A program made the translations under genes and the position numbers. A DNA stretch of 56,279 nucleotides. Source: a virus. Its lineage: Duplodnaviria; Caudoviricetes. The notes below the pieces were generated by a model. The model worked only from the letters and a program-made list of their open reading frames with translations, ran no database searches and was not told where the DNA came from. Below, piece after piece: positions 1-44,036 of this stretch (its first letter is position 1; every line of letters begins with the position of its first letter). The stretch lies in the IMG/VR virus record IMGVR_UViG_3300027365_000016, positions 1-56,279 of that record; one strand, written 5' to 3'.

Positions 1-134
1 ATTTTGAAAAATGTGCAGTAAAACTCCCCGTTCGTTCGACAAAACCGAACGGTCGATGTTTTTCATATCGACAGAATCGAATGAAGCCCGCTGATTTGCG
101 GGCTCCAAGAGAGGCGAGGCGACGGTCAGCCGGG

Positions 135-3899: not shown

Positions 3900-4300
3900 G
3901 TGTTCCCGTTAGATTTCGGCCTATTTATCAGCGCAATCAATAGCTTGGCGAAATCTGTTCCTGTTTATGTTCCCGTATCGAATCAAAGGGTAACGCCGAT
4001 TTTCCTTTCCGGTCAGTGGGTTACGGCGTTCTGTTCAAGATACGCCTGTTTCCACTTCACTCATACTATACACGCGCGTAACACGCGCATGCGTAACGCA
4101 CGCATACCGCGTCTACACGGGCTCTCTACACCTCTCTTATTTTTCTCTACGCGTAAGAGTTAGTAGTTAATAGGAAAAGTGGAACAGTAAAGGGGTTGCG
4201 GCCGTCAACGGCGGGGTCTCCAGCCGGTTCCGCATTTTTCAGGAAAGTGGAATTAAACGGGAACAAGCGCCCGAAACGGGAACAACTCAGGCCGTTCAGA
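3900..4300. other. putative replication origin
   Basis: AT-richer non-coding gap downstream of primase. TGTTCCCGT x2 (3901, 3968) faces ACGGGAACA x2 (4257, 4276). IHF consensus at 3935-3947. Central alternating purine-pyrimidine tract. Confidence 0.55.
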
Positions 4301-4361
4301 CGCAAAAACGCCGCCCGGAGGCGGCGAGTTGGGGATTTTCCGAATCCAGAAATGTCGAAAT

Positions 4362-7764: not shown

Positions 7765-7861
7765 GGCAATTCTCAACAAAAAGTTGGCTGGCTCATTCTA
7801 CTGACGGCCGCGAACGGCCTGCAAGGCGATACTCGCAGGCTGGCAACCGCAGAATGACTTT

Positions 7862-7901
7862 TCAACCAATAGTTGACAGTTCAATTGGGCGGTGCTGTAA
7901 T
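7862..7901 (+). promoter_or_regulatory. rightward sigma70 promoter of the replication operon, overlapped by an operator
   Basis: TTGACA (7873)-17bp-TGTAAT with extended TG; TCAACCAATAGTTGA at 7862-7876. Confidence 0.75.
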
Positions 7902-7951
7902 CCGTCAGGCCTAGCAACGCACAACCTGAAATCCGTCACGAGGTACCCCGA

Positions 7952-8611
7952 ATGAGTCTCGAGCAGCAGATCGCCCGCCTGGCTGAAGCCGTCGAAAAGA
8001 ACAACGAACTGCTGGCCGCCGGCCATGGCGCCACCGTCCCGGCCAGCGCGCCGAAGGGCGGCTCCGACAGCGGGCAGGAAACCCAGAAGGCCGAAAACAC
8101 AACCGACAGCAAGTCCGAGGGCGAGCCGGAGATCATCTGGTACCACAACCCGGACGAGAAGAAGGTCTGGTCCGAGGAGGGCCCGGCGAAGCGCCGCAAG
8201 GGCATCGTCAAGGTCGACGAGACCACCGCGCAACGCCTGGTCAAGAAGTACGAGGGGGAATCCGCGGAAGAAGCCGAGCAGGAAGAGGCTACCGACACCG
8301 CAAACGACCTCGACGACGGCTTCGACCTGGGTGGCGGCGAAGAGGACAGCGGCGACGCGTTCGACGAATCCGAGCCCATGGACAACGAAACCTTCTCCGG
8401 GCACTGGAACGACTGGACCAAGGCGGCCATCAAGCATGCCCTGGAGAACGGCGCCGCCGATCAGGCCGCCGCGCAGACCGAGGTCAAGAAGTTCATCGTG
8501 CCGGTGGTCAAGTCCTTCGTCGGCAAGGACGAGCAGCCCAAGGTTGCCAGCATCCCCGAAGAGAGCCGCGCCCGCTTCCTGAACAAGGCGCACGACTTCT
8601 TCAACGGCTGA
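7952..8611 (+). CDS. acidic hypothetical protein preceding DUF2800
   Basis: MSLEQQIARLAEAV start typical of this synteny; strong codon bias. Confidence 0.75.
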   Translation: MSLEQQIARLAEAVEKNNELLAAGHGATVPASAPKGGSDSGQETQKAENTTDSKSEGEPEIIWYHNPDEKKVWSEEGPAKRRKGIVKVDETTAQRLVKKYEGESAEEAEQEEATDTANDLDDGFDLGGGEEDSGDAFDESEPMDNETFSGHWNDWTKAAIKHALENGAADQAAAQTEVKKFIVPVVKSFVGKDEQPKVASIPEESRARFLNKAHDFFNG

Positions 8612-32000: not shown

Positions 32001-33759
32001 CCTCAAAAGCCTCAGCAGCACGGTCGAGGAGTACGCGTTCGACGGCTTGAGCGACGCTGCGCAGAAGAAGGTCGCCGAGATCAAGGCGGAACTGGCCAAG
32101 GCCAAGAAGGAGCTCGACGACAAGTATTTCGCCGAGTTCCAGCAGCGCACCAAGGCCCTGACCGGGGGCAGCGGCACCGGGCCGAGCCTGACGCCGGCCG
32201 CCGTGAAAAGTGCGGGTCAGGTGACCGGCCTGACGGTCGAGGGGATCCTCGGCCACGAGATCAACCCCAGCGACTACAACTCGGGTGACGGCGACACCGA
32301 GCAGCAGGCCAAGGAGCGTGCCGACGCGGTGATCGCCGAGGCGAAGCGGGTGACGGCCGCGGTCAACGCGGAACTCGAACGCCAGAAGGCCGAACTCGAG
32401 CGGACCTACGACGATTCGCTGATCACGGTGCAGGAGTATTACGACGAGCGCACCCGGATCGCCAAGGAGAAGATCGACGCTGAGATCCGCCAGCTTCGCA
32501 CGCAGATGGCGGAGTTGCAGCGCGCCGACCCCGCAGCCACCAACGACAGCCAGATCCGTCGCCAGTCCCAGATCGCCGACATCCAGGCCCGGATCGTTCA
32601 GCTTACCCGGGACAAGGCCGAGGCCGAGAAGCAGTTCGCCCACATGGCGCAACAGGCCCGAGCCGACCTGCTCGACCAGGCCCGGCGCCTACGCAATCAG
32701 GTGCTGATCGAGCAGGGCAACGAACTGCAGGCGCAGTTGAACCGCAACCAGGATCAGTACGAAAAGCTGATCAAGGCCGCGGAGAAGCTGTCGGGCGTCG
32801 AAGGCGAGCGGATGCGCAAGAACGCTGAAATCTGGAAGAGCCTGTCAGACCAGAGTGCGGCGATCACTGCGGCCCGGCGCCATGCCGACGACGTGGCCCG
32901 CGCGGCCCAGGCGGCGTCGGCGATCATGGATGCGATGCTGGAAGCCGGCAAGACCGCGGGCGACATCACCGACCTCGAGGCCCTGCGTATCGAGGGGCAT
33001 ATCAACGAGGAGAAGATTCGCGAACTGGAGAAGGTCAAGCAGGCCTATGCGGGCGCCGGCAAGGAAGGGGCGGCGGCGGCGATGCGTGTCCAGGCGCAGA
33101 TCATCAAGCTCAAGGCCGAACTGGACCCGCTCGCCAACAAGATCCGCGGCATCTTCGAGGACCAGTTCACGACGATGTTCAAGGAACTGGGCCAGGCCAT
33201 CGCCAATGGCGAGTCCTCGCTCAAGGACGTCTTCCGCAACCTCGGCGCCAATCTGGCCGGCGAGTTCGCCGACATGTTCGCCAAGGAAGCCAGCCAGCAA
33301 CTCATGAAGGCCTTCAAGGAAGCCGGGCTGTTCGACTTCCTGAGCGGTCTGATCATCAACAAGGACTGGGGTACCAAGATCGCCAAGGTCGGCGCCAGTG
33401 TATTCAGTTCGTTGGCCTACCACGACGGCGGGATTGCCGGTAGCCCCGGCCAGGGCCAGCGTCGGATGGTCTCGCCGTCATGGTTCTCCAACGCCGTGCG
33501 CTATCACGAGGGCGGCATCGCTGGCCTGCGCCCCGGCGAGGTCCCGGCAATCCTCGAACGTGGCGAGGAGGTACTGACCAAGGATAACCCTCGTCATTCA
33601 ACTAACGGTGGCGGAGGCAACCAGGGGGCCATTAAGATAGTCAACACCTTCGACGCCGGCGAGATGGTGTCGGCAGGACTGAACACCTCGGCCGGCGAGA
33701 AGGTGATCATGAACTTCATGTCGCGCAACCGGCAGAAGATCAAGCGGACACTGGGGTAA
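29044..33759 (+). CDS. tape measure protein (1571 aa)
   Basis: Ala-rich helical sequence, QMMSKGKISAEELRQQLGE, C-terminal YHEGG..GEVPAILERGE. Confidence 0.95.
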   Translation: MAKSNVELVIRARNEASKALRSISDAIKDVTKDQKTLAGQAGSTESRLGELGRELGSLDERLKSLRSAGRLAGDLDKTTTALNRQKAATQQAQLRYTELAKTVSDTERPTKRLQNQLAAAERRLASNREKTAALEQTVAGLAQQYDAARADLGGMVASEDDLARSTARAAAEFTALQTQIRELRKVSKGAAAADLSGLDVPGLARAGEAISSVGRRVREAGNAADLTAVDLKTLSAEVDQLEGVAKDIGELRQMAATFAEMRRESLETRRVWKELEGQTKALAQEFAAADQPSQELAQRLGEARAASRQAKSTYEQTRASVKQFGDVLRAAGVDVSDMAAAQKTLDAQLETTAQVMARSRVELDRLSDEQASLAKAQGEAAAASEKEQEARQEALKAGSRALRVYRQTKGAVEEARTAYEDATKQVTRIATAMREADQPTAAMTREFEKAKKRAGELKDNFRAVQQASGLLARTLRENKDDAEALVASQQQLETALDRSASRLNKAGTEASAAEQRLQEFRDETERARKAATELGQGAEAAGQGVDRFAEQARQAEAAMRAFRDQGRTTLSLLQRMRGQVLALASAYVGLYGVGSGVASVADAQIGLEATQSRLRVAVGDDPEKVAEELKFVRQVADELKLEFRGLSEEYSKFAAASRGAGASAEETRAIFLALAKAGRVNKLSSDEMRRAINAVTQMMSKGKISAEELRQQLGEVLPGAFDIFAKSIGVTGGELDKMLKEGSVRADSLVYFARELEKRFGEALPGAVESTSAKIAEFRNTIYDLKLIIAQSGFIDSLGDSLERVTEELAKPEAQEGARELGRAIGSLIESMVDMLDYMDELILGLKLLAAALGVKWGLNLVAGIAEAIRSLRKFRAAAGLATVAVRGLWQAITGIGLLLAGWSIAEWAAKEFPAFGRYWAAFKATLFTGLLDLKAKFQVTAVEIKDVFSGNIKALGSIILKAVASWAERLSKLFSFVGADSIADGLKSLSSTVEEYAFDGLSDAAQKKVAEIKAELAKAKKELDDKYFAEFQQRTKALTGGSGTGPSLTPAAVKSAGQVTGLTVEGILGHEINPSDYNSGDGDTEQQAKERADAVIAEAKRVTAAVNAELERQKAELERTYDDSLITVQEYYDERTRIAKEKIDAEIRQLRTQMAELQRADPAATNDSQIRRQSQIADIQARIVQLTRDKAEAEKQFAHMAQQARADLLDQARRLRNQVLIEQGNELQAQLNRNQDQYEKLIKAAEKLSGVEGERMRKNAEIWKSLSDQSAAITAARRHADDVARAAQAASAIMDAMLEAGKTAGDITDLEALRIEGHINEEKIRELEKVKQAYAGAGKEGAAAAMRVQAQIIKLKAELDPLANKIRGIFEDQFTTMFKELGQAIANGESSLKDVFRNLGANLAGEFADMFAKEASQQLMKAFKEAGLFDFLSGLIINKDWGTKIAKVGASVFSSLAYHDGGIAGSPGQGQRRMVSPSWFSNAVRYHEGGIAGLRPGEVPAILERGEEVLTKDNPRHSTNGGGGNQGAIKIVNTFDAGEMVSAGLNTSAGEKVIMNFMSRNRQKIKRTLG

Positions 33760-33764
33760 CGGGC

Positions 33765-34730
33765 ATGGCCTACGAGAAAGGGACGGCGTCGGGTTACGTC
33801 GACTTCTACAACAAGCTCTACAGCTTCCTCACCAGCAACGCCGACCTGGTGGCCGCCGATCAGCACTGGAGTCTCGCCTGGGGGACGGCACCGCCGCTCT
33901 CCGGGACGCCCAGCGGGCAGGAGACCGATCTGGTACTGCGCGGGCCGGGGCTGGCGGGCAATGACGCCGTCTTCGTGGCGATGCGGCTTTTCCGGGACGC
34001 CGACGACGACGTTCACGGCATCTACATGCGCAGTTGCGATTCGGTATTGCCGTCCGCAGCCGCCTATGACGAGCATGTCAACGCGTCATCGTGGGTCTGG
34101 ACGCCACTTTTCGACGACACCATGACCTACTGGTTCATCGCCAACGGTCGGCGCTTCATCGCGGTGGCCAAGCTGTCGACGGTTTACGAGGCGATGTACG
34201 GCGGGCTGTTCAAGCCGTTCTCGCCGCCCTCGGGGTACCCTTACCCGGTCTGCGTGGGCGGCTCCAGCGCCACCTTCCTGCGCTACTCGATCGCCGACTA
34301 CCGGCACACGCACTTCGTTGACCCGGGACCTCGTGACGGCACCGCGGACGACGCCTCCAGCACCAACTCCACCGGCGGCGAGTCGTTGATCGTTCGCGAG
34401 CCCGGCGGAGCCTGGCAGAAGTTCACCAATCTCGACGGGCAAGGCACGGGCAAGACCTATCCCTGGGCTACCGCCAACTTCACCAGTGACAACTTCCTCG
34501 AGCGCTGCACGCCCTTGCTGGGCGGGGGGTATCTACTGACGCCGGTGACGCTGACCATCGACGTCGACTCGGTGCGCGGGGCGCTGGGCGTGCTGGACGG
34601 AGTCTACCATGTCGCCGGCTACGGCAACGCTGCCGAAAACATCATCACCCTTAACGGCCAGGACTACCTCGTGGTGCAGAACGTCTATCGTACCGACCTC
34701 GAGGGTTACTGGGCCTTGAAGCTGGAGTAA
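33765..34730 (+). CDS. virion structural/baseplate protein
   Basis: First post-TMP gene; YWFIANGRRFI, YPYP, GVLDGV, YLVVQNVYRT. Confidence 0.75.
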   Translation: MAYEKGTASGYVDFYNKLYSFLTSNADLVAADQHWSLAWGTAPPLSGTPSGQETDLVLRGPGLAGNDAVFVAMRLFRDADDDVHGIYMRSCDSVLPSAAAYDEHVNASSWVWTPLFDDTMTYWFIANGRRFIAVAKLSTVYEAMYGGLFKPFSPPSGYPYPVCVGGSSATFLRYSIADYRHTHFVDPGPRDGTADDASSTNSTGGESLIVREPGGAWQKFTNLDGQGTGKTYPWATANFTSDNFLERCTPLLGGGYLLTPVTLTIDVDSVRGALGVLDGVYHVAGYGNAAENIITLNGQDYLVVQNVYRTDLEGYWALKLE

Positions 34731-34736
34731 CCGCCC

Positions 34737-35690
34737 ATGGCCTATACTTCGTTCTCGCCCTCCGGTTTCGCCGAGACGCTGTCGCAGATCGCCGCCTTTC
34801 TGTCATCGGATATGGGCTGGTCAGCCAGCTACGACAGCGGTGCGGAGCAGGCGACCATCGTGCCGAAGGCCAACGAGGCGACCTTCGTACTGGGGTATTA
34901 TTACGACGACGAGTACACGGGGAACTGGATCACCTGCCAGGTCTCCAAGGGCGGCAACGTCTTCACCGCCAACGTCAACATGATGCCGGCAGTGTCGAAG
35001 GTGTGGATCTTCGCCGGAAGCACGCCGGAGCCCTGGTGCCATGTCGTTATTCGCTCTGCGCCCGGTGACTACCACCACCTCTATTTCGGCTATCTCGAGC
35101 GCTACGGCGCCTGGTCCTGCGGTGCGGTGGCCGACGGCACGCTCTGGGACTCGAGTTATCGTTATCGGGAAAGCGCATTCCACGTCCACAACCACATGCT
35201 GTTCAGCGGGGAGAGCTACTGGGCGTTCAGCACTGCTGCCGAGAAGATGGGAGGGGTGCTGCTCGAAGGAGTCAATGTCTCGAAGGGCATCGCCCGGTTC
35301 GCGAGAGCGACCGGCAGCTATTCGATCTCCAGTTACCCGGATGACGCGTCCGCATACGCTGCCGCCTACGGGGGGTTCAAGGACCACGCCAACGGCGGGC
35401 TGGTCAGCCAGGGCACCCCTTTGCACAACGGCATCACGCCGATGACGCCGATCCTGCTGACGGCGGACTTCGACCTTAACGGGAACCGGACACCGATCGG
35501 GTCCCCGCCCGGGGTCCGCATGGTCAACATCACCGACTACAACCCCGAGGACGTGGTGACCTTCGGCGCGGACCAGTACCAGCTATTCCCGCTGGCCAAC
35601 AAGACTCGGCCTTTGAATCTCTACGATGACCTTCCGACGGGGGTGATCGGCGGCTCGTCTTGGATGGGCGTCGCCGTGAAGCGGGTGTGA
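34737..35690 (+). CDS. virion structural protein (paralog-like of the preceding gene)
   Basis: YHHLYFG, aromatic-rich; synteny. Confidence 0.7.
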   Translation: MAYTSFSPSGFAETLSQIAAFLSSDMGWSASYDSGAEQATIVPKANEATFVLGYYYDDEYTGNWITCQVSKGGNVFTANVNMMPAVSKVWIFAGSTPEPWCHVVIRSAPGDYHHLYFGYLERYGAWSCGAVADGTLWDSSYRYRESAFHVHNHMLFSGESYWAFSTAAEKMGGVLLEGVNVSKGIARFARATGSYSISSYPDDASAYAAAYGGFKDHANGGLVSQGTPLHNGITPMTPILLTADFDLNGNRTPIGSPPGVRMVNITDYNPEDVVTFGADQYQLFPLANKTRPLNLYDDLPTGVIGGSSWMGVAVKRV

Positions 35691-35691
35691 C

Positions 35692-37386
35692 ATGGCGATG
35701 ATCATGGAGCCGTGGGTCGAGTGGTCGGCCGAATCCGTTCAGGGCGGCGATTCGCTGCCGGTGCCCGTGCCGGGGGCCGTCAGCCCTTATGCGATCGACC
35801 CGGCCTTGCCGGCATCAGGGTTCGGCGACAGACTGCCGGTGCCAGTGCGGCCGCAGGCCCGGGTAGCCGGCACGACCGGCGCCTCGCCGCTCGACGATAT
35901 TTACGACACGCTCTGGGTCGTGCCCGGCGAGATCAACGTCGGCAGCCTGACCGCGACGGTGAGTCGCGAGGTGGAGGTCTGGAACGCCTACCCGGGAGCG
36001 GACAAGACTCTCTCGGCGATCAGCGTGTCCGGCGGCGAAGGCATCAACGTCACCGGGCCGGCGGCCCCCCACACCTTCGCCCCCCTGGAGAGCCAGGTCT
36101 TTGCCGTCGAGGTGACCCCGGCCGGGCCGGCGACCATCGACGCGCGTTACGACCTGACCTTCGACGGCGTGACGAATGTGCCGTTCTGGACGGTGGTCGG
36201 CCGGCGCATCATCGAGTGGGATGTCCCGCCCAACTGGGCGGCCGGCTACAACGAGACCCTGTCTTTCAAGACCGAGGTGCTGACCGCCTTCGACGGCACG
36301 GAGCAACGCCTCGCTCTGCGCCACCGGCCGCGTCGCGAGATCGAGTTCGAGCCGGTCTTCGCGGGGGACGCCGGCCGGCGGGCGAAGCGGCTGCTCGCCA
36401 CCTGGCAGAACCGCAACTTTGCCATGGCCGACTGGGCCCGCGGCGTACATTGCGCCGGGCTCCCGGCCGGTACCACCTCGGTAACGCTCGATGAGCCGAT
36501 CCCGGAGCTCGCGGTCGGCGACCTGATCGTCCTGCGCGGCGAGGGTGTCTCCCAGGCGATCGAGGTCGCGGCGATCGACGGGCTCGAGATAACGCTCAAC
36601 TCGCCGGTAGCGGCCAGCTTCCCGGTGGGCACGCGCGCCTATCCCGGCCTGGTCGTTCACGCCGCGGCGTCGCTGACCGATCGTCGGCTGACCTCGGATG
36701 CCGGCCGGACCAGCATGCAGTTCCGCCAGGCTTACGCGACCGGGAAGCTGGATGCCGGCAGCGCCGCGACGACCTGGCGAGGCCTCGAGGTATTCCTGGC
36801 TCGGGCCAACTGGGCGCAGAATGTCGAGCTCGATCACGTATTCAACTTCACCTGGCTGGACAACGAGCGGGGGCTGTTCGCCTTCCGGACGCCGGAAGAC
36901 TCGCCCAAGGACGTGCGCAAGATCACCGTGCTCAGCGCCTCGCGCGGCGAGGTCCGGGCACTGACGGACTTCTTTAAGCGTTGTCGGGGGCGCCGCGGCG
37001 AGTTCTACGCCCCGACCTGGGATCTCGACCTGCGGGTGCCCGACGGCGAGGTGCTGCTCTCCGGGGGATTCACGCTGCCGGTCAGCGACACCGGCGAGGT
37101 GGACCGGGTCGGGCAGGATCTCGTCTACCGCAACCTGTACGTGCGGCTTACCGATGGCACCGAGCTCTTCCGGCGGGTGACATCGGCGGACCTCGGCCCG
37201 GACGGCACGCCACGGCTGGCCCTCGACGCCGGCTGGCCGCGCAACGTCAAGGCTCACGAGGTCGCGTTGATCTGCTGGATGCCGCGCTGCCGGCTGGCCA
37301 GTGACCAACTGACCATCGAGTGGAAGACCGACGGGCTGGCGGAAGCCAGCATCGCCATGCAGACGCTGGAGGATCCCGACGAATGA
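35692..37386 (+). CDS. tail-tip structural protein (Ig-like N-terminus plus distal-tail-like region)
   Basis: VWNAY, PNW, EQRLALR..PRR, RGRRGEFY.P. Confidence 0.75.
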   Translation: MAMIMEPWVEWSAESVQGGDSLPVPVPGAVSPYAIDPALPASGFGDRLPVPVRPQARVAGTTGASPLDDIYDTLWVVPGEINVGSLTATVSREVEVWNAYPGADKTLSAISVSGGEGINVTGPAAPHTFAPLESQVFAVEVTPAGPATIDARYDLTFDGVTNVPFWTVVGRRIIEWDVPPNWAAGYNETLSFKTEVLTAFDGTEQRLALRHRPRREIEFEPVFAGDAGRRAKRLLATWQNRNFAMADWARGVHCAGLPAGTTSVTLDEPIPELAVGDLIVLRGEGVSQAIEVAAIDGLEITLNSPVAASFPVGTRAYPGLVVHAAASLTDRRLTSDAGRTSMQFRQAYATGKLDAGSAATTWRGLEVFLARANWAQNVELDHVFNFTWLDNERGLFAFRTPEDSPKDVRKITVLSASRGEVRALTDFFKRCRGRRGEFYAPTWDLDLRVPDGEVLLSGGFTLPVSDTGEVDRVGQDLVYRNLYVRLTDGTELFRRVTSADLGPDGTPRLALDAGWPRNVKAHEVALICWMPRCRLASDQLTIEWKTDGLAEASIAMQTLEDPDE

Positions 37387-38231
37387 CCAACAACGAGATC
37401 GAGATCAGCGACGCGCTCGGCGAGCCGATCGACCTTTATCAGTTCTCCTACGGGGCAGGGTCGGCGACCCGGCTGCTCTACTGCGACTCGGACTTCGAGA
37501 TCACCGTCGGCGCCGAGGTCTACTACCCCGGGTACATCGACCGGGACGCGATCAATACCTCGGGCAGCCTCGACAAGTCGGAGCTCGAGGTGACCGTGGC
37601 CGAGGACTCGCACATCGCCGAGTGGTTCCTGGTCTACCCGCCCTCCGAGGTGGTCGGACTGGTGATCTCGCGCTGTCACTATGACGATAGCACCGGCGAA
37701 GCGACAACTCCGCAGGTGATGTGGTCGGGACGGGTGCTGGCCTGCTCCCGCGAGGGCTACAACGCGAAGCTGCGTTGCGAGCCGGTGGCGACCTCGATGC
37801 GCCGCGTCGGCCTGAGACGGCACTACCAGTACATGTGTCCGCACGTCCTCTACGGCACCGACTGCCGGGCCAGTCGAGTCGCCAACACGACGGGCAATAC
37901 CGCTCGGGCCGTCGGCCCGCGCACGGTCAAGGTGGACGGCAACGTGGGCGATCAGTACCGCGGCGGCATGCTCTCCTGGACGCCTGTCGGCAAGCCCGTG
38001 GAGCGGCGCACCGTGCTCAACGTCAGCTACGACGACACCAGCAATCAGACCCTGCTGACCGTGGCCGGTAACCCGACGACGCTGAACCCGGGTGACTCGG
38101 TCGAACTGGCCAAGGGGTGCCGGCACACGCTCGACGATTGCCACGGGGTCTTCGACAACGCGGTGAATTTCGGCGGTATGCCGTACATCCCGACGCAAAA
38201 TCCGCATGGCACGACGTCGATCTATACCTGA
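37383..38231 (+). CDS. tail hub protein (DUF2163/BR0599, gpL-like)
   Basis: CPHVLYG..C, GC.HT..DC, NFGGMPYIP..NP. Confidence 0.85.
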   Translation: MTNNEIEISDALGEPIDLYQFSYGAGSATRLLYCDSDFEITVGAEVYYPGYIDRDAINTSGSLDKSELEVTVAEDSHIAEWFLVYPPSEVVGLVISRCHYDDSTGEATTPQVMWSGRVLACSREGYNAKLRCEPVATSMRRVGLRRHYQYMCPHVLYGTDCRASRVANTTGNTARAVGPRTVKVDGNVGDQYRGGMLSWTPVGKPVERRTVLNVSYDDTSNQTLLTVAGNPTTLNPGDSVELAKGCRHTLDDCHGVFDNAVNFGGMPYIPTQNPHGTTSIYT

Positions 38232-38273
38232 TAATGCAACCATAAGTTGCTTTTTCGACTGACGAGGTGAGCG

Positions 38274-38501
38274 ATGGGATTCTGGTTCGCGCTGGCGATG
38301 ACGCTGATCTTCAACGTGATCTCTTACATCCTGCGCCCCAAGCCGGATACCTCTGGGGACTGGCAGTCCCAGGACCTGCGGGCGCCGACCGCCGATGCCG
38401 GCAAGCCGGTACCGGTGGTGTTCGGCGAGATAACCGTCGTCTCGCCCAACGTGATGTTCTACGGCGACATCGACAAGGACGACTACGAGGTGGATGCATG
38501 A
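38274..38501 (+). CDS. small tail assembly protein
   Basis: PTADAGKPVPVVFG...PNV..YGD. Confidence 0.8.
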   Translation: MGFWFALAMTLIFNVISYILRPKPDTSGDWQSQDLRAPTADAGKPVPVVFGEITVVSPNVMFYGDIDKDDYEVDA

Positions 38502-38692
38502 CGGTGACCATCGACGATATTCGCCGATTCCACTGCACGCGCGGGATCCGGCGCTGGTTCGAGAGTCAGGGCCTGGACTTCCGGGCATTCCTGTGCAGCG
38601 GCATCGCCGCCGATCGGTTGCTCGCGACCGGGGACGCTCGGGCTAAGCAGGTGATCGACGCCAAACGGGCTGCGCAGGAGGCGGATCGGTGA
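38498..38692 (+). CDS. small tail assembly chaperone
   Basis: CTRGIRRWF...GLDFRAFL..GI....L.ATGDA. Confidence 0.8.
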   Translation: MTVTIDDIRRFHCTRGIRRWFESQGLDFRAFLCSGIAADRLLATGDARAKQVIDAKRAAQEADR

Positions 38693-41037
38693 GCATCGGA
38701 GGCGGCGGCGATGCCAAGCAGTCGGTCACCGACTATTTCGCGTCGGTCCATTACGGCGTGTGCGCCGGGCCGGTGGATGCCGTTACGCAAGTCTGGTACG
38801 GCGAGAAGCTGGCATGGAAGGGCAACGTCACCGGCTCGCAGGCGGTCGCCATCGACAAGGAAGGGCTGTTCGGCGGCAACAAGTCCGAGGGAGGGCTGGT
38901 CGGCACACTGGAGATGCTGCTCGGTAACGACGACCAGGTTCTGCCTGCGTCCGCCGTCGAGGTGCTGCGTCGCAACGGGGCGACCGGCCAGACCGACCCG
39001 CAGAAGGTGCCGGCCTATCGTAAGATCCTGTCGGTGTTCATGCACGGTGGATCCGAGGGCGCCAATATCGGCTCGAACACGGGCTACATCAAGGCGTTCT
39101 GGTTTCGCGTTCGTCGGGCCCCCAAAGGCTGCCCGTTCGAGCCGACAATCATCGTCAACGACATGCACCTGGCTAACCCGGCGGCGATCATCTGGGAGTG
39201 CCTGGCCAACGGCGTGTGGGGCATGGGCGCCCCGGTCAGTTTGATCGACGCCGATTCGTTCGTCGCCGCGGCGCAGACCCTCGCGAACGAGAAATTCGGC
39301 CTGGCGATGATGTGGAAGGAGCAGGAGTCGATCGAGGACTTCGTCGCCCGGGTACTCGACCACATCGAGGGGTCGCTGGCCGTCGACCCGTTCACCGGGC
39401 TGTTCCGCCTCAAGCTGGTTCGCGACGACTACAACGTCGAGGACCTGCCGGTCTTCGGGCCGCACAACGCTCGGCTCAACAGCTTCGAGCGCCGGGCCTG
39501 GGGCGAGACCACCAACGAGATTAACGTGTCGTGGACCAACCCGGAGAACGAACAGACGGAGACCGTCACCGTCCACGACACCGCCAACGTCAACCTGCAG
39601 GGCGGCACGGTGGTCTCCGAGACCAAGAACTACTCCGGTATCCGCGACGTCGACCTGGCATTGCGCACCGCGACGCGCGACCTGCTGGCTTCGGCGTCGG
39701 CCCTCGCCAGTGCCGAATTGCAGGTCAATCGCCAGGCGTGGCGGATCCTGCCCGGCGACGTGATTGCCTTGACCTGGCCGGCTTACGATTACGAAAGGGT
39801 CCCGATGCGAGTGTCGAGTGTCGACTACGGCAAGCCCGGCGACAGCACGATCACGCTCTCGCTGCTCGAGGATGTCTTCGGCATGCCGGCCCAGACGTAT
39901 GTCGAGTCGACCGGCTCGGCCTGGGTCAACCCGGCTGTTCAGCCGTCGTCGCTGCCCTACCGGCAGGTCACCTCGGTTCCCTACTACGTGGCGGTCCAGA
40001 AGGCCGGCGAGGCGGCGAGCGAGGCGATCGCGGATACCTCCGACTACGACGTGGCGTTCGGCTCCCACCCGCAGCGTGGCGTGTTCAAGTTTGATCTGGC
40101 GGTCCAGCAACCCGACGCCAACGGGGATCTCGCCTGGGTCGGCCGCGGATCGGCAAATCTTTCCGCCTACGGGGCGCTGCTCGACGACCTGCCGGCGGAG
40201 ACCACCAGCGTCATACCTGAGATCGACGATCTGGTGCAGGGCGGTCGAGCGATCGCCGGCGCGCTGGCATGGATCGGCCCCGTCGACCAGACCGGCGAAC
40301 TCGCGCTGATCAAGGCCGTGGACGGTACCGGCTATACCCTGACCCGCGGCGTGCTGGATACCGTACCCAAGGCCTGGCCGGCGTCGACCCCGGTTTGGAT
40401 CATCCCGGCGGCGTCATGGGCGACCACCGGCATCGAGCGGGCGATCGGCGAGACGGCCTCGATGCGCTTTCTGCCGACGACGGCGCTGGGCCGGCTGGCA
40501 ATCGGCGACGCCAGCGACGTCACCGGCAGCATGTCCGGCCGTTTGCACCGGCCCTACCGGCCGGCGAAGGTGCAGATCGCCGGAGAAACCTGGCCGTCGG
40601 CGGAGACGGCACGCAGTTTCCCTCTCACCGTTACATGGGTCGGCCGCAACCGGCTCGAGGAGACGACGCTGGTCAACGACTGGGAGGACGGCGCGGTCGC
40701 CCCCGAGGACGGCGTCACCTACACGGTGGAACTGTTCGGCGAGGACGGCGCGGGCAACGTCACCAGCTACCACGTCGAGGACGTAGGCACGGCCACCAGC
40801 TACTCGATCGACGTGGCAGCCGACCCGCCCCCGGCCGGGGCGGTGTATTTGCAGATCGAGGTCCGCTCGGTACGCGACGGGCTGGCCTGCTGGCAGGCGA
40901 TCCGCCATCGCATACGCCTGTTTAACCCGCCGAGCACCATCAACGCCGTCCGCATCGACCTCTACGGGCCCGGCGACCTGCTGGCCGCCGCCATCGACCT
41001 CATCGCCCCCACCGATATCACCGCCACGGAGACCTGA
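38689..41037 (+). CDS. tail tip / central tail protein (J-like)
   Basis: H.GVCAGPVD, NPAAIIWECL, LKLVRDDY, LPGDVI, RGVLDTVP, RPYRP. Confidence 0.88.
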   Translation: MSIGGGGDAKQSVTDYFASVHYGVCAGPVDAVTQVWYGEKLAWKGNVTGSQAVAIDKEGLFGGNKSEGGLVGTLEMLLGNDDQVLPASAVEVLRRNGATGQTDPQKVPAYRKILSVFMHGGSEGANIGSNTGYIKAFWFRVRRAPKGCPFEPTIIVNDMHLANPAAIIWECLANGVWGMGAPVSLIDADSFVAAAQTLANEKFGLAMMWKEQESIEDFVARVLDHIEGSLAVDPFTGLFRLKLVRDDYNVEDLPVFGPHNARLNSFERRAWGETTNEINVSWTNPENEQTETVTVHDTANVNLQGGTVVSETKNYSGIRDVDLALRTATRDLLASASALASAELQVNRQAWRILPGDVIALTWPAYDYERVPMRVSSVDYGKPGDSTITLSLLEDVFGMPAQTYVESTGSAWVNPAVQPSSLPYRQVTSVPYYVAVQKAGEAASEAIADTSDYDVAFGSHPQRGVFKFDLAVQQPDANGDLAWVGRGSANLSAYGALLDDLPAETTSVIPEIDDLVQGGRAIAGALAWIGPVDQTGELALIKAVDGTGYTLTRGVLDTVPKAWPASTPVWIIPAASWATTGIERAIGETASMRFLPTTALGRLAIGDASDVTGSMSGRLHRPYRPAKVQIAGETWPSAETARSFPLTVTWVGRNRLEETTLVNDWEDGAVAPEDGVTYTVELFGEDGAGNVTSYHVEDVGTATSYSIDVAADPPPAGAVYLQIEVRSVRDGLACWQAIRHRIRLFNPPSTINAVRIDLYGPGDLLAAAIDLIAPTDITATET

Positions 41038-41038
41038 C

Positions 41039-41788
41039 ATGGCCCTCAACATCACCTGGACCGACACCAACGAAAGCGAAGACGGCTACAACGTCTATAT
41101 CCGCGACACCCCGATGACCTGGCCCAGCGACGTGCCGGCACCGGTCGTCACCAATGCCGACACGACATCCTACGCCGCCAACGTGGACACCACGGTGGAT
41201 CAATATGTGATCGTCACCGCTGTCAAAGGCGGAATCGAGGTCGCCGCCGAACAGGTCCACTTCGACCCCGCGGGTTCTGGCGGAGGCGGCACCGACGACT
41301 TCTCAAGCGCGCAGATCGGCGACCGGATCGGCGGCGGGATCTATGCAGGCATCGACACTATCGGCGGCACCGATTACCACATCGTCTCAGGCGACGCCGC
41401 TTCCGAGGCATACGGGCTGGAGTGGAAGACCTCGCGCACGACGACCTCGGGAACCGGCAGCGACACCGACGGCCTGGCCAACACCCAGGCGATGGAAGCG
41501 GCAGGCATCGCCGATCACCCGGCGGCGCAGCACTGCGTCAACTACACCGGCGGCGGGCACACCGACTGGCACATGCCGGCGCACAGCCAGCTCACGCTGA
41601 TGTATGGCAACCTGGCCGGCCACGCCGAGTTCGCCGATAACGTCAGCTCCGGCGATTACACCTGGGCTTCCACGGAGTACTCGTCGACCAACGCCTGGGG
41701 TCTGAGGTTCTCCGACGGTAACGAGAGCACCGGCGGCAAGGACGCCACCATTCTACGGGTTCGTCCGGTCCGCAGGGTCGCGGTTTAA
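41039..41788 (+). CDS. DGR target: N-truncated FN3-like domain, Gly linker and C-type-lectin-fold (DUF1566-like) variable domain; probable receptor-binding protein
   Basis: ITWTD..ESEDGYNVY; GSGGGG; GGIYAG, GLANT, GGHTDWHMP, WASTE, VRPVRR; 3' end matches TR. Confidence 0.9.
   Translation: MALNITWTDTNESEDGYNVYIRDTPMTWPSDVPAPVVTNADTTSYAANVDTTVDQYVIVTAVKGGIEVAAEQVHFDPAGSGGGGTDDFSSAQIGDRIGGGIYAGIDTIGGTDYHIVSGDAASEAYGLEWKTSRTTTSGTGSDTDGLANTQAMEAAGIADHPAAQHCVNYTGGGHTDWHMPAHSQLTLMYGNLAGHAEFADNVSSGDYTWASTEYSSTNAWGLRFSDGNESTGGKDATILRVRPVRRVAV
41671..41776 (+). repeat. DGR variable repeat (VR)
   Basis: 106-bp ungapped match to 42399-42504 with 15 mismatches, 13 opposite TR adenines. Confidence 0.97.
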
Positions 41789-41795
41789 TTCTCAG

Positions 41796-41839
41796 CCGGC
41801 GCCGACAGGCGCCGGTACTCACGCCGGGCGCAGCCCGGC
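41796..41839 (+). other. DGR target-recognition hairpins
   Basis: CCGGCGCC-GACA-GGCGCCGG (41796-41815) and GCCGGGC-GCA-GCCCGGC (41823-41839) just after the VR. Confidence 0.8.
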
Positions 41840-41851
41840 TAAGGCGAGGAC

Positions 41852-42238
41852 GTGTCCAGCATCACCCAACACCTTCCGATCTACAGGACCACCTATGCGC
41901 TGCTGCAGGTGGTGATGAAGGGTCTCAAGCACTTCTCGCGAGACCTTCGCCCCACTCTCGGCAACCGCCTCCTCAACGAAGTGCTGCGGCTGATCACCGC
42001 GATCTACCGCGCCCGAGCCACCCGGGATGACCGTTCGCGGGTTAAGCATCTTCGTGCTATATTAGAAACTATTGAAGTTGTCGAGCCGCTGCTGCAACTG
42101 TGTCATGACATGCAGCTCCTCCCGCGCGAGGTCTACGCGGAGACGGTCGAGCTCACCAGCAGCATCGGTCGCCAGGCCGGGGGCTGGTTACGTGACGCCC
42201 AGCAAAGCCTCGACGACCGCCCGTTGCATGCCGGGTAG
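41852..42238 (+). CDS. avd: DGR accessory variability determinant (four-helix bundle)
   Basis: LPIYR..Y.L, R.TLG.R, IGRQAGGW; lies between target and TR. Confidence 0.88.
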   Translation: MSSITQHLPIYRTTYALLQVVMKGLKHFSRDLRPTLGNRLLNEVLRLITAIYRARATRDDRSRVKHLRAILETIEVVEPLLQLCHDMQLLPREVYAETVELTSSIGRQAGGWLRDAQQSLDDRPLHAG

Positions 42239-42398
42239 TGCCGGCGCCCGTTCTATGGCGGCTACGGCTGCCTCAGCAGTGCGCATTACCTGGTCGCGCC
42301 CATGCCACAAGGCATGACAGGCCCCTCCCGCGGTAGGGGCAACTTCCCGGCTGATCGGCACTGCCTTCGGCGGGGCGGCGTGAAGGCGCGATGAAACT

Positions 42399-42504
42399 CA
42401 CGGAGAACTCGTCGAACAACGCCTGGGATCGGAGGTTCTCCGACGGTAACGAGAACAACAACAACAAGGACAACACCAATCGACGGGTTCGTCCGGTCCG
42501 CAAG
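42399..42504 (+). ncRNA. DGR template repeat (TR)
   Basis: 33 adenines; 9 AAC and 1 AAT codons in the VR frame. Confidence 0.95.
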
Positions 42505-42523
42505 TAATCAGGATGCTCCCGGC

Positions 42524-43660
42524 ATGCAGCCCACGTTCCAGGAAGTCACGCTCGCCTACCTCGACTGCCGCCGGCACAAGCGCAGCACCGAAGCTGCTAT
42601 GCACTTCGAGAATCACCTGGCAGGCAACCTTCGGCGACTGCACGGCGAGCTATGTGACGGCAGCTACCGGATCGGCCCATCTCGCTGTTTCGTGGTGCTG
42701 CACCCCAAGCCCCGTGAGGTGTGGGCGGGTGCCTTCAGGGACCGGATCGTCCACCACCTGGCCTACAACCGGCTGTCGCCCAAGGCGTATCGCACTTTCT
42801 CCGCCGATTCTTGCGCGTGCATCCCGGGGCGGGGCACCCTCTACGGTGCCAACCGGTTAGGGGGTCACATTCGCTCGGCGACCAAGAACTGGTCGAAGCG
42901 GGTCTACTACCTCAAGATGGACCTCAGCAACTTCTTCGTCAGCATCCACAAACCGACCCTGGCGAACTTGCTGGAGCCTTTGTTCGAGGACGACTTCACC
43001 CGTGATCTGGCACGGCAGATTCTCTTTCACGACCCCACGCGATCCGTCGAGATTCGCAGCCCGCGCTGGAAGATGAACCGGGTGCCGCGCCACAAGAGCC
43101 TGTTCAACGCTCCGCACGGCTGCGGCCTAGCCATCGGCAACCTGCCCTCCCAGTTCGAGGCCAACGTCTACCTGAATCTGCTTGACCAGTTGGTCAACCA
43201 TCGGCTCAAGCCCGCCGGTTATATCCGCTATGTCGACGACTTCATCCTGCTGCACGAGGACCGCGACTGGTTGCTGTCCGCCCAGGCGCAGATCGAGGCG
43301 TTCCTATGGCAGCGCCTGCGGCTCCAGGCCAACCCACGCAAGACGGTGATCAACACCTGTGAGCGAGGCGTCGATTTCGTGGGGCAGGTGATCAAGCCCT
43401 GGCACCGGGTCGCCCGGAGCACCCTATACCCCGCCGCGAAACGAGCGATACGCCAGGCGCCCGACGACACGACACGCTGCGCCTCGGCCAACAGCTATTT
43501 GGGTATTCTGGGTCAGACGGCCAGCTACCGACAACGGGTGGCGCTTTGCGAAACGGCCGCGGCCTACGGGCACCCGGTTGACCCGGAGAGGCGGAAGGTG
43601 CTCGCCGAGCAGAAACCGGCTGCGACTCAGCCTGCACCTGCGCTAGGCTCACGGCAGTAA
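42524..43660 (+). CDS. DGR reverse transcriptase
   Basis: KPRE, FRDRIVHH, KMDLSNFF.SI, GLAIGNLPSQ (SQ signature), RYVDDF, GVDFVG. Confidence 0.95.
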   Translation: MQPTFQEVTLAYLDCRRHKRSTEAAMHFENHLAGNLRRLHGELCDGSYRIGPSRCFVVLHPKPREVWAGAFRDRIVHHLAYNRLSPKAYRTFSADSCACIPGRGTLYGANRLGGHIRSATKNWSKRVYYLKMDLSNFFVSIHKPTLANLLEPLFEDDFTRDLARQILFHDPTRSVEIRSPRWKMNRVPRHKSLFNAPHGCGLAIGNLPSQFEANVYLNLLDQLVNHRLKPAGYIRYVDDFILLHEDRDWLLSAQAQIEAFLWQRLRLQANPRKTVINTCERGVDFVGQVIKPWHRVARSTLYPAAKRAIRQAPDDTTRCASANSYLGILGQTASYRQRVALCETAAAYGHPVDPERRKVLAEQKPAATQPAPALGSRQ

Positions 43661-43685
43661 TGGTTCCGGTCGACGAGGGCATACT

Positions 43686-44036
43686 ATGCCGCCAGAAAGC
43701 ATCGAGCAGCGACTCTCCGATCTCGCGACCTCCCAGGTCCAACTCGACGGGAAGGTCACCGCCATCAGCAAGAACATGGAAGAGATCAACGTCACCCTCG
43801 GCCAGGTGGCGGAGGCGCTGACCACGATTGCCGTACAAGGCGAGCAGGTCATGGCGCTGCGGCGAACCGTTGACCAACTCACCGGCGACATGAAGGTCCT
43901 CACGGATCGGCAGCGGGAACTCGAAGTCGAGGTGGCCCAGAACACGGCGCTGCGGACCTGGTCGTTCCGGCTGGCTCTGGGCGGGGCGATCGCCGTCGTC
44001 GGCTTCGTCTGGAAGAAGGTCACCGACGGCATTTGA
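43686..44036 (+). CDS. coiled-coil protein with C-terminal TM (holin/antiholin-like)
   Basis: Heptad pattern followed by LALGGAIAVVGFVW; end of the late operon. Confidence 0.55.
   Translation: MPPESIEQRLSDLATSQVQLDGKVTAISKNMEEINVTLGQVAEALTTIAVQGEQVMALRRTVDQLTGDMKVLTDRQRELEVEVAQNTALRTWSFRLALGGAIAVVGFVWKKVTDGI

Follow-up and report, generated by a model that had tools for sequence, protein, structure and literature searches.

In this study, we propose that the hypervariable adhesin of a tailed virus docks on the tail tip by strand complementation, a proposal drawn from sequence comparison that we hold with slightly more confidence than doubt. The tail-tip protein and the adhesin would be two translationally coupled proteins that jointly encode one FN3 domain. 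The N-domain of the adhesin would form an FN3-like sandwich of strands B to G only, and the last 10-13 residues (APTDITATET) of a flexible tail-tip extension would be the equivalent of strand A. The truncated FN3 would act as a portable adaptor, or socket, for different heads, and the donor peptide as a portable plug present on two tail-tip families without detectable similarity. Since the N-domain appears to lack strand A, the donor resembles it, the spacing across the break matches and the split is conserved, strand complementation is the best reading. The window, i.e., the whole stretch of DNA analyzed here, comprises 56,279 nucleotides and contains the following elements.

38689..41037, + strand: tail-tip (gpJ/megatron-like) protein, 782 aa (Phage-tail_3, PHROG 1101, gene order)
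40636..40917, + strand: last beta-sandwich domain of the tail tip, approximately residues 650-743 (AF2, conserved motif)
40918..40956, + strand: repeat 1, LFNPPSTINAVRI, proximal A-strand-like motif (position matrix, conservation)
40957..40995, + strand: repeat 2, DLYGPGDLLAAAI, additional repeat (position matrix 5.3, DNA repeat)
40996..41034, + strand: repeat 3, DLIAPTDITATET, best A-strand match and proposed donor strand (position matrix 11.3)
41028..41041, + strand: coupled junction, GGAG (41028-41031), TGA, one base and ATG (sequence)
41039..41272, + strand: truncated FN3-like N-domain, target residues 1-78, predicted strands B to G (AF2, VIA-align, profile)
41273..41302, + strand: Gly-rich linker (pLDDT below 50 at target residues 79-83)
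41303..41788, + strand: Lcl_C/DUF1566 head of C-type-lectin fold, with the variable repeat (Pfam, VIA, VR/TR)
41671-41774, + strand: variable repeat (VR) in the target head, 87% identical to the template repeat
41852..42238, + strand: bAvd accessory protein (Pfam bAvd, E 5.5e-11)
42399..42502, + strand: template repeat (TR; VR/TR match)
42524..43660, + strand: DGR reverse transcriptase (Pfam RVT_1, E 1.3e-10)

The tail tip and its repeats

The product of the tail-tip gene carries a Phage-tail_3 domain at residues 211-375 (Pfam, E 4e-17) and matches PHROG 1101 'tail protein' (E 4e-213) and PHROG 31 'central tail fiber J' (E 3.9e-9). The gene is preceded by tape-measure, DUF2460-like (below the Pfam cutoff) and BR0599 hub genes; this place after tape-measure, distal-tail and hub genes, together with the Phage-tail_3 domain, characterizes the protein as gpJ/megatron-type. 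We take it to be trimeric in the virion, as its solved relatives are. The PHROG 1101 profile counts 1405 positions, and the window protein spans 76-810 only. Its closest homologue (P0037, from locus L030) is 59% identical across the whole protein. The last sandwich ends in a family-wide SVRDGxxSWQ motif, conserved across 105 tail-tip homologues, and a final strand IRHRIR. An AF2 model of residues 594-782 places strands up to fragment residue 150 with a pLDDT of 84-94 in this sandwich, followed by a 39-residue tail of low pLDDT in isolation (62, 53, 47 and 40 by block).

This tail closes the open reading frame with ...RIRLFNPPSTINAVRIDLYGPGDLLAAAIDLIAPTDITATET, and its 13-residue periodicity is non-random. 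The in-phase BLOSUM62 sum-of-pairs score is 33 versus -34.4 +/- 12.9 in shuffles of the same 39 residues, none of 20000 shuffles reached it, and among periods 8-18 only period 13 scores positive. The DNA itself also repeats: 40945-40976 and 40984-41015, offset by 39 nt, share 72% identity. Locus L030 contains three clearer repeats (score 74 versus -18.5 +/- 12.8; 0/20000 shuffles). Likeness to FN3 strand A was measured with a position matrix built from 27 cis A strands of unrelated metagenomic FN3 proteins, with a threshold of 3.59, the 99.8% quantile of 79871 background positions, at which approximately 0.07 chance matches are expected per 45-residue tail. All three repeats exceed it (4.0, 5.3 and 11.3) and the last scores highest. 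Repeat 1 (4.0; pLDDT ~62 in isolation) occupies a position conserved in 7/7 aligned tail tips. Repeat 2 is confined to the window and L030, and five of the seven tail tips align with a gap in its place. Repeat 3 (pLDDT 40-47 in isolation) carries the cis A-strand motif 'AP(S/T)(G/N)LTAT..'. Both the three terminal repeats and their resemblance to strand A, as first noticed in a sequence-only reading of this DNA, are borne out by the shuffles, the single period and the matrix scores.

The adhesin and its diversification

The downstream gene (41039-41788, + strand) encodes a DGR target of 249 aa with the N-terminus MALNITWTDTNESEDGYNVY... The AF2 model of its N-domain (mean pLDDT 92.8) consists of the B to G strands only, at residues 2-6, 16-22, 37-40, 44-48, 55-63, 66-69 and 73-75 (pLDDT 84-93); Trp and Tyr motifs mark strands B, C and F. 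The N-domain profile matches two solved structures, 3b4n_A (E 1.5e-4) and the Fn3-like protein 3mpc_A (E 1.3e-5), the match to the latter beginning at chain residue 24. In structural alignments with VIA-align, model residues 1..77-88 are superposed on 3mpc_A 20..98 (Z 9.3) and 3b4n_A 31..107 (Z 9.5), with 74-77 residues aligned at an rmsd of 2.0-2.2. Model residue 1 falls on residue 20 of 3mpc, 31 of 3b4n, 16 of 4m6a_G, 20 of 2h41, 19 of 8bw6 and 11 of 9y5y_B (Z 7.9-9.5), six entries that we interpret as single-domain or N-terminal FN3 chains. Compared to the target model, solved FN3 chains have 10-30 additional N-terminal residues. Among aligned target homologues (36-81% identical), 24/27 start 2-4 residues before the B-strand Trp. 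A search of a representative library gave 27021 proteins matching the N-domain at E <= 1e-3, the best 150 being multi-FN3 giants, a result that bears on the fold but gives no indication on N-terminal truncation. In sequence and fold the N-domain is thus similar to solved FN3 domains, yet it is not a complete seven-strand sandwich, strand A being absent from the model, the alignments and the comparison with cis relatives. Profile search, model and structural alignment therefore agree with the earlier suggestion that the adhesin is encoded without a strand A of its own, as far as sequence and prediction can tell.

The head is an Lcl_C domain (Pfam, 38.4 bits versus a cutoff of 34.9) that aligns with the Legionella Lcl C-terminal domain 8q4e_A (VIA Z 13.9, rmsd 2.2, 118 residues) and the Bacteroides ovatus fimbrial protein BACOVA_04982 (4eps; VIA Z 12.8). 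Of the 15 mismatches between VR and TR, 13 fall on TR adenines and two on TR guanines. Reverse transcriptase, bAvd, an adenine-biased TR/VR pair and a VR in the 3' lectin-fold end confirm the DGR context that had been assigned to the target.

The junction separates two proteins

The tail-tip gene stops with TGA at 41035-41037, its last codons contain GGAG, and the target ATG follows at 41039. The 249-aa frame thus starts after a single spacer base, exactly as the sequence-only reading had it. Similar junctions bearing GGAG or GAGG are found at 13 loci; their gaps range from -8 to +9 nt, and all three frame relations and all three stop codons are represented. The range of gaps and frames therefore points to two proteins, with neither a frameshift nor an error behind the break. 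The last codons also supply a Shine-Dalgarno GGAG for the downstream gene, which may account for part of the conservation of the residues that they encode (T-E-T, V-E-V).

Programmed recoding, by a +1 frameshift at ACC-TGA-C or by readthrough, would yield a covalent tail-tip-adhesin fusion. The window, L027 and L004 indeed have a TGA-C stop with the downstream frame at +1, and the L028 junction is in frame across TAG, yet close relatives differ in frame (+1, +2, 0), stop codon and spacer (-8 to +9 nt), and every downstream gene has its own ATG with GGAG/GAGG mostly 5-9 nt upstream, which makes recoding very improbable. A sequencing or assembly indel splitting a single gene would be compatible with the one-base spacer, but the identical two-gene layout recurs in independent genomes, metagenomes and cultured phages, and the 24 of 27 aligned target homologues noted above are stand-alone proteins of approximately 250 aa. 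These homologues, together with the conserved split of variable gap, refute the indel, to which we give practically no weight.

Conservation of the split in other loci

The combination of a donor tail tip and a truncated-FN3 gene is conserved in 13 loci and in Bordetella phage CN1, and the motif is retained in these 13 loci while N-domain identity drops to ~25%. The loci belong to related prophages and phages, and locus counts therefore do not represent independent events. In Halomonas phage QHHSV-1, a donor of 662 aa ends in ..IPKDQLSVEVI and the next gene starts with MARRVSWTNN..; this donor has no Pfam family and no similarity to the window tail tip (best BLASTP E 1.5), so that the donors form two families without detectable similarity. 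The heads differ as well: the truncated FN3 carries Lcl_C in the window and Laminin_G_3 elsewhere. A whole-target scan of viral contigs found no relative, a megablast of 30000-44000 against phages gave no match, and a scan of genome contigs yielded 4 loci. At G065, an '892-aa open frame' considered as a fused form proved to be an open alternative frame in GC-rich DNA; the locus is split. In phage 201phi2-1, gp442 is a virion protein with a truncated FN3 at its start, and gp443 bears an A-like motif immediately ahead of it.

Cis relatives provide the reference for the missing strand. Where this FN3 does not follow a donor, it retains its A strand, as in the 616-aa and 609-aa proteins encoded in L028 and L029, where it is internal, and in the head-tail-module DUF1566 proteins of L001 and L003; these four proteins have 20-28 additional residues that include the strand. 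In a metagenome scan, 102 of 104 domain matches in 68 loci are internal FN3s, as a rule after 'P.AP..L.A..S'; L114 is the sole split locus there, nearly all others being cis FN3 domains. In cis, the B-strand Trp lies 14 residues from the hydrophobic residue of the A motif in 1030/1289 cases and 13 in 170/1289. Across the break this distance is 12-14 residues, and 12 in the window, as counted by eye on the junction sequences. The last repeat and the target N-terminus accordingly read as one FN3, as had been claimed, at a spacing of 12 versus mostly 13-14 residues in cis. A classification of the tail-tip C-terminal tails in a set of 68 loci relied on crude patterns and visibly missed several cases. 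In it, none of the 37 GY-rich or TExG-repeat tails precedes a truncated FN3, and 5/5 truncated-FN3 next genes follow P..L-type tails, although the L028 tail lies below the matrix threshold and a sixth such gene, in L029, was missed in this count owing to a spurious ORF.

The number of motifs follows the number of truncated-FN3 genes only in part. The ratio is 1:1 in 6 loci and 2:2 in 4 loci and phage CN1, but 2:1 in L107 and 3:1 in the window and L030; group-3 donors have a single motif. A general rule that motif number equals gene number is contradicted by L107, the window and L030, and the expected co-occurrence of repeat number and truncated-FN3 genes holds for the equal loci only. Moreover, the equivalent of repeat 1 is retained in L040, where the next gene lacks a truncated FN3, so the proximal motif, at least, may serve another role. 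The earlier idea of up to three adhesin copies per tail-tip subunit is in line with the 1:1 and 2:2 loci but is weakened by the 2:1 and 3:1 loci and by the L040 motif. That several VR variants would be displayed per virion as a result of non-covalent attachment does not follow, because a cell with mixed genomes mixes any multi-copy virion protein, and mixed variants are therefore no mark of non-covalent docking.

Proposed docking by strand complementation and its alternatives

Two features of a donor-strand pair can be recognized here: the acceptor appears, from sequence and model, to be encoded without one edge strand, and the terminal extension of its partner has the pattern of the missing strand (4.0, 5.3 and 11.3 versus 3.59). 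Anatomy, spacing and the conserved split thus support in part, by comparison, the docking mode suggested by the sequence-only reading, with the peptide as a putative inserted strand. A complex prediction for tail-tip residues 650-782 with target residues 1-88, run without controls, scored 0.15 and 0.01 against a mark of 0.32, which weighs on neither side of the question of binding. By analogy, it is physically possible for another chain to supply strand A of an FN3, since the entry 4m6a, to which the best FN3 matches of the N-domain in Foldseek belong, is titled as N-terminal beta-strand swapping in a consensus-derived scaffold. We infer that the strand is physically inserted into the adhesin sandwich, and likewise which of the three repeats is used: we think that the last repeat is the working plug, with the two upstream repeats serving either as extra plugs or as a spacer.

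The split could also be the remnant of a fission, in which the A-B loop of an ancestral tail-tip-FN3-head fusion became the breakpoint, leaving the A-like peptide as a leftover or linker, the six-stranded domain stable alone and the adhesin attached by other contacts or not located on the tip. AF2 folds the N-domain confidently without strand A or a partner, so the domain may be stable alone, a confidence that says nothing firm on real stability; some tail tips are fused in cis to other C-terminal domains (Laminin_G_3 in P0079, P0113 and others), the PHROG 1101 profile extends beyond the part matched by the window protein, and the Shine-Dalgarno sequence also constrains the last codons. A useless peptide would be expected to decay, however, and the motif persists in 13 loci at N-domain identities down to ~25% and in two donor families. 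It is also duplicated to 2-3 copies with the period maintained, and a cis fusion of the N-domain to the tail tip was found in 0/105 tail-tip homologues. We consider such a remnant unlikely, though deserving of attention. Still less probable, in our view, is that the repeats belong to the fold of the tail tip itself, intertwining in the trimer as a short beta shaft or spiral on which the adhesin docks without receiving a single strand in its sandwich. Other tail classes in this family likewise consist of short tandem repeats (GYG.NYG.YYGG; TE.GD.R.TE.GD.R), each paired with next-gene N-termini of its own, which fits a general trimeric repeat tip; repeats outnumber partner genes in the window and L030, and a trimer-dependent fold would be invisible to a monomer model. 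Against such a shaft, the matrix that each repeat fits comes from ordinary monomeric FN3 domains, strand A is precisely what the acceptor is missing, the distance across the break differs from that in cis by 0-2 residues and group-3 donors bear one motif only.

Strand complementation could be one case of a wider principle, which we advance as a doubtful, speculative extension: tail-tip C-terminal peptides and downstream N-termini might form a modular plug-and-socket code, with the split FN3 as one class and distinct plug variants pairing with distinct socket paralogues. A subunit could then bear two different adhesins or, here, up to three copies of one DGR lectin head, i.e., nine per trimeric tip, and the split may extend to jumbo phages (201phi2-1). 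The plugs show a proximal pattern '..L.A.Y' and a distal pattern '..D[IV][TS]F/A..', and conservation of the two N-domain classes spans Halomonas, Bordetella phage CN1 and one metagenome locus.

Comparison with known systems

As in chaperone-usher pili and in type V pili, where a protease mediates strand exchange, an Ig-like fold without one edge strand would be completed by the terminal extension of another polypeptide, the insertion being inferred in our case. In chaperone-usher pilins the missing strand is the C-terminal strand G, whereas here it would be the N-terminal strand A of an FN3-like domain. Unlike in both types of pili, the donor strand would come from the C-terminal end of a phage tail-tip protein, the locus has no chaperone, usher or protease, and the attachment would be a one-off event without a polymer. 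The paradigm of a phage DGR target is Mtd of Bordetella phage BPP-1, a receptor-binding protein of C-type-lectin fold at the tail end, which possesses trimeric N-terminal domains, is located on tail fibres and has no FN3 adaptor; the head described here is instead of the Lcl_C/DUF1566 type.

According to the available portion of a preprint on type V pili, tip adhesins with C-type-lectin heads are DGR targets and assemble by beta-strand intercalation (bioRxiv 10.1101/2024.11.15.621889). The general idea, presented earlier as undescribed for a DGR target, consequently has a precedent, although judging from that portion neither in phage tails nor with a split FN3. The 4m6a entry, going by its title, is alike in that an FN3 sandwich takes strand A from another chain (VIA Z 8.4, model 1..77 on chain 16..90), but concerns an engineered homodimeric swap of a complete domain, as opposed to a natural split across two genes. 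Like separately encoded receptor-binding proteins that dock on the distal end of gpJ/megatron tips, the adhesin is encoded immediately downstream of a central tail-tip protein without a receptor-binding end. AF2-Multimer models of tail-tip/receptor-binding protein pairs (PMC12309495) and a fibre-binding domain in the C-terminal part of the RcGTA megatron (bioRxiv 10.64898/2026.07.19.739414) have been reported; neither source, in its available portion, describes a domain split between two proteins. The RcGTA fibre has an alpha-helical rod at its N-terminus (PMC7296036) and F-pyocin side fibres bind a coiled-coil shaft (PMC13455828), both as given in the accessible parts of these articles. Among the papers listed for donor strands or strand complementation in phage tails, none describes such a case and the two phrases have 0 occurrences; a split FN3 is likewise not described in the accessible text of work on DGR with DUF1566, the GTA megatron, QHHSV-1 and Bordetella phages.

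Implications

The same layout occurs in cultured phages, namely Halomonas phage QHHSV-1 and Bordetella Vojvodinavirus phages, which makes the model directly testable. If the strand is indeed inserted, the mechanism would account for the attachment of a hypervariable receptor-binding head, encoded by a gene of its own, to a siphophage tail tip and for the use of one small adaptor by lectin heads of different folds. It would also provide a rule by which tail-tip genes and their adhesins can be paired in metagenomes: P..L.A-type motifs at the end of the tail tip and M-x-x-x-[IVL]-x-W at the start of the next gene. A short portable tag for exchanging receptor-binding modules among phages would become available, and donor-strand complementation would extend beyond bacterial pili to virions.

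Results

Tail tip, terminal repeats and gene junction

The putative donor and acceptor are encoded by two adjacent genes:

38689-41037, + strand: tail-tip gene, 782 aa, product ending ...RIRLFNPPSTINAVRIDLYGPGDLLAAAIDLIAPTDITATET, TGA stop at 41035-41037
41039-41788, + strand: target gene, ATG at 41039, 249 aa, product starting MALNITWTDTNESEDGYNVY, one base after the tail-tip stop

The protein upstream of the target is a gpJ/megatron-type tail-tip protein. It matches Pfam Phage-tail_3 (E 4e-17) and PHROG 1101 'tail protein' (E 4e-213), and tape-measure, DUF2460-like and BR0599 hub genes precede its gene. The three 13-residue repeats that the sequence-only reading had placed at its C-terminus are not due to chance: their in-phase score is 33 versus -34.4 +/- 12.9 for shuffled sequences, 0 of 20000 shuffles scored as high, and 13 is the sole positive-scoring period. 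The closest homologue, P0037 (locus L030), ends in three clearer repeats (LLNPPTDVNALAV / DLKSVTDLTASAV / NLNAPTDVTATEA). In an AF2 model of the C-terminal part of the window tail tip alone, the last domain has a pLDDT of 84-94 and the 39-residue tail 62, 53, 47 and 40 by block.

Resemblance of the donor motif to strand A was scored with a position matrix. A metagenome scan with four N-domains (residues 1-78 in the window target) returned 71 loci, with 104 domain hits in 68 of them, of which 102 lie within large proteins as internal FN3 units. A P.AP(S/T)(G/N)LTAT.VS-like segment usually lies just N-terminal of such internal FN3s, with strand B (..I.LSWTD) starting 1-3 residues on. The matrix was built from 27 strands in cis, i.e., in the same polypeptide as their FN3, excluding a subfamily with a shorter KAPTPGVPG segment, and its threshold of 3.59 is the 99.8% quantile over 79871 tail-tip-body positions. 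Repeats 1-3 of the window score 4.0, 5.3 and 11.3, those of P0037 10.5, 7.1 and 18.5, and at least one match is present in the last 45 residues of 16/105 tail-tip homologues. Across 150 multi-FN3 proteins (1289 cases), the conserved hydrophobic residue of the A motif precedes the B-strand Trp by 14 residues 1030 times and by 13 residues 170 times. Over the gene break, counted by eye on the junction sequences, the two are 12-14 residues apart, with 12 for the window, which places the break in the A-B turn.

Putative acceptor domain without strand A

Nearly all aligned target homologues (24/27; 36-81% identical; Halomonas, Billgrantia) begin at or within a few residues of one shared Met, immediately ahead of the I-x-W strand. 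Searching with a profile from 19 N-domains gave matches to the solved Fn3-like protein 3mpc_A (E 1.3e-5; profile 5-75 on chain 24-89) and, from chain residue 35, to pectate lyase 3b4n_A in its N-terminal domain. The AF2 model of the target (alignment A1; mean pLDDT 92.8) has N-domain strands at 2-6, 16-22, 37-40, 44-48, 55-63, 66-69 and 73-75, assignable in this prediction to B, C, C', E, F and a G in two pieces, followed by a low-confidence Gly linker at residues 79-83. VIA-align superimposes model residues 1 to 77-88 on 3mpc_A 20..98 (Z 9.3), 3b4n_A 31..107 (Z 9.5) and 4m6a_G 16..90 (Z 8.4), and also on 2h41 20..95 and 8bw6 19..99. Since model residue 1 aligns to chain residues 16-31, the solved relatives own one extra N-terminal strand compared to the N-domain. 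No other part of the target occupies the strand-A position in the model. The confidence of AF2 in this six-stranded domain says little of its real stability.

Conservation of the split

An A-like motif ending one gene, with the next gene starting at strand B, is common to 13 loci, with spacers of -8 to +9 nt, every possible frame relation and TGA, TAG and TAA as stops; GGAG/GAGG often lies in the last donor codons. This variation excludes a sequencing error as the origin of the gene break and speaks against recoding at a conserved signal. The sole frame-0 junction of the 13 is found in L028 (4944-4958), where the tail-tip TAG and the next ATG, 9 nt downstream, share one frame.

Contexts of the split layout (locus handles as used here; CN1 is a cultured Bordetella phage)
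Context 1: window, L030; window-like tail tips; three motifs, one gene
Context 2: L027, L028, L029, L114, CN1; tail tips of ~950-1000 aa, some with VWA; two motifs, two consecutive truncated-FN3 genes
Context 3: L004, L005, L010, L031, L032, L033; 662-675-aa donor as in Halomonas phage QHHSV-1; one motif (..IPKDQLSVEVI), one gene

Between the QHHSV-1-type donor and the window tail tip no similarity is detectable (BLASTP E 1.5 at best), and this donor matches no Pfam family. Within context 2, the genes of the L027, L028 and L029 group bear Laminin_G_3 heads where scanned (L028), and L107 has two motifs and one gene, then host genes. The N-domain was found in cis on none of the 105 tail-tip homologues. 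Where a homologous FN3 has no such donor upstream, it keeps its own A strand, as in the internal units of the 616- and 609-aa proteins of L028 and L029, which read GFGVSVDTQADQ-TTLTW, and in the DUF1566 proteins of L001 and L003.

The tail protein of CN1 ends ..MPPSSLQAQYVSPTPPEITGFSVTP and is followed by products starting MGFRIVWKDNN.. and MKVTLFWTDPN..; CN1 genes of this layout are labelled virion structural proteins in a database note. The annotated CDS of CN1 gp78 (L185 5001-5684) starts at 5076. Both the ORF and the N-domain similarity start at an ATG at 5001, 10 nt past the stop of the tail protein, so the annotation is probably too short and would drop 25 residues including strand B. 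In Pseudomonas phage 201phi2-1 (L186 2838-3966, spanning gp443 and gp442), gp442, a virion protein by mass spectrometry according to a database note, starts with the same truncated FN3 (MLIQLKWLDPN..). The 53-aa gp443 ends one base before gp442 and has an A-strand-like 'IPPAATFQVIDV' inside. Matches beginning at query residue 1 were also obtained in jumbo phages of Erwinia and Ralstonia.

Tail classes and next genes

In all tail-tip homologues the last domain is a common one that ends SVRDG..SWQ, and the variable tail after it carries P..L.A-type motifs, GY-rich sequence (e.g., RAGYGLNYGKYYGGI) or TE.GD.R repeats. Scoring of 68 loci with crude patterns suggests that the class of tail goes with the type of N-terminus that the next gene encodes. 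A PNLGL..GW-type N-terminus follows 28/33 GY tails, several of the five misses being visibly pattern failures. Truncated FN3s follow 0/37 GY or TExG tails, and all five truncated-FN3 next genes stand after P..L-type tails, that of L028 scoring below the matrix threshold; the scoring script missed a sixth case, L029, by picking a spurious ORF. The loci are related, so the pairing is a hint and not a statistical test. A tail that serves as docking site for the product of the next gene fits this pairing, as does the C-terminal part of the RcGTA megatron, which a preprint describes as fibre-binding (bioRxiv 10.64898/2026.07.19.739414).

Partners of GY-rich tails start 'MASTDPNLGL.YGW..GE.GWN..MD.NLK' (L034-L113, e.g., L046, L068, L037, L102; P0048-P0140), and genes after 'TE.GD.R.TE.GD.R.LE' tails (L034-L113, P0048-P0140) start 'MA.K.SEL...G.ELV...Q.G'. 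Both look like further cognate docking pairs.

The variable head

The target carries a Lcl_C/DUF1566 head and belongs to a DGR, as bAvd and RT genes lie downstream. Its VR (41671-41774) is 87% identical to the TR (42399-42502); of 15 mismatches, 13 are at TR adenines and two at TR guanines (41703 and 41754; TR G, VR T). By VIA-align, the head (41303-41785) resembles the C-terminal domain of Legionella Lcl (Z 13.9). It also aligns, at Z 12.8, with a fimbrial protein of Bacteroides ovatus, BACOVA_04982 (4eps). Type V pilus tip adhesins form a further class of DGR targets (bioRxiv 10.1101/2024.11.15.621889).

The ORF list of L030 (G070, 4000-7000) has no obvious RT or Avd ORF right after the target gene, suggesting that the split adaptor is not bound to the presence of a DGR. 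DUF1566 proteins also occur in the head-tail module of L001 (3593-4492), L003 (3851-4726) and L002 (3890-4501), flanked by tail-completion-like and major tail genes, and start 'RPLWASQRGG'. Those of L001 and L003, with a complete FN3, represent an alternative mounting of the same head.

Discussion

The arrangement described in the sequence-only reading is confirmed. Based on comparative anatomy, we lean towards a model in which FN3 strand-A complementation would dock the adhesin on the tail tip. This core of the sequence-only reading is sustained by an acceptor without strand A, an A-like donor and the conserved split; its further proposals, three copies and mixed variants, fare poorly. Foldseek ranks 4m6a, an engineered strand-A-swapped FN3, first among the FN3 matches to the N-domain, and this structure shows that taking the strand from another chain is geometrically feasible.

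The number of docking sites per tail tip is a separate matter. When 17 N-domains were placed in a FastTree tree, those from first genes formed one cluster across all loci, the window among them (support 0.85), apart from those from second genes; mean identity among first-gene domains is 53%, versus 36-49% between the two genes of one locus. By eye, proximal motifs share a ..L.A.Y pattern that is absent from distal ones. Together, these differences make two plug types for two socket types plausible. The window has only a first-class socket gene, yet three motifs; the middle one is inserted in the window and L030 only, and L040 retains the proximal motif alone, before a gene that is not a truncated FN3. 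The last repeat is therefore the likely working plug. Two genes past this L040 tail tip, a 156-aa protein (7837-8307) has three tandem 19-residue repeats (ARLTSAGVEVLTDDVHEGG) before an FN3-like domain. The proposed co-occurrence of repeat number and truncated-FN3 genes holds in the 1/1 and 2/2 loci and breaks down in L107 (2/1) and in the window and L030 (3/1). Three target copies per tail-tip subunit are accordingly rather unlikely, and the case for several variants mixed on one virion is weak.

Closest by mechanism are chaperone-usher pili (donor-strand complementation) and type V pili (strand exchange). Unlike in pili, what is missing here is strand A at the N-terminus of an FN3, the proposed donor strand sits at the C-terminus of a tail tip, and there is no sign of an assembly factor. 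Models exist of separately encoded receptor-binding proteins at the ends of truncated gpJ-like spikes (PMC12309495), and other attachment modes have been solved (PMC13455828, PMC7296036); in the accessible parts of these reports, the systems have no split domain. Our literature searches turned up no account of phage tails that use a donor strand or strand complementation. The interest of the split layout lies in its being widespread, rule-like and testable in cultured phages.
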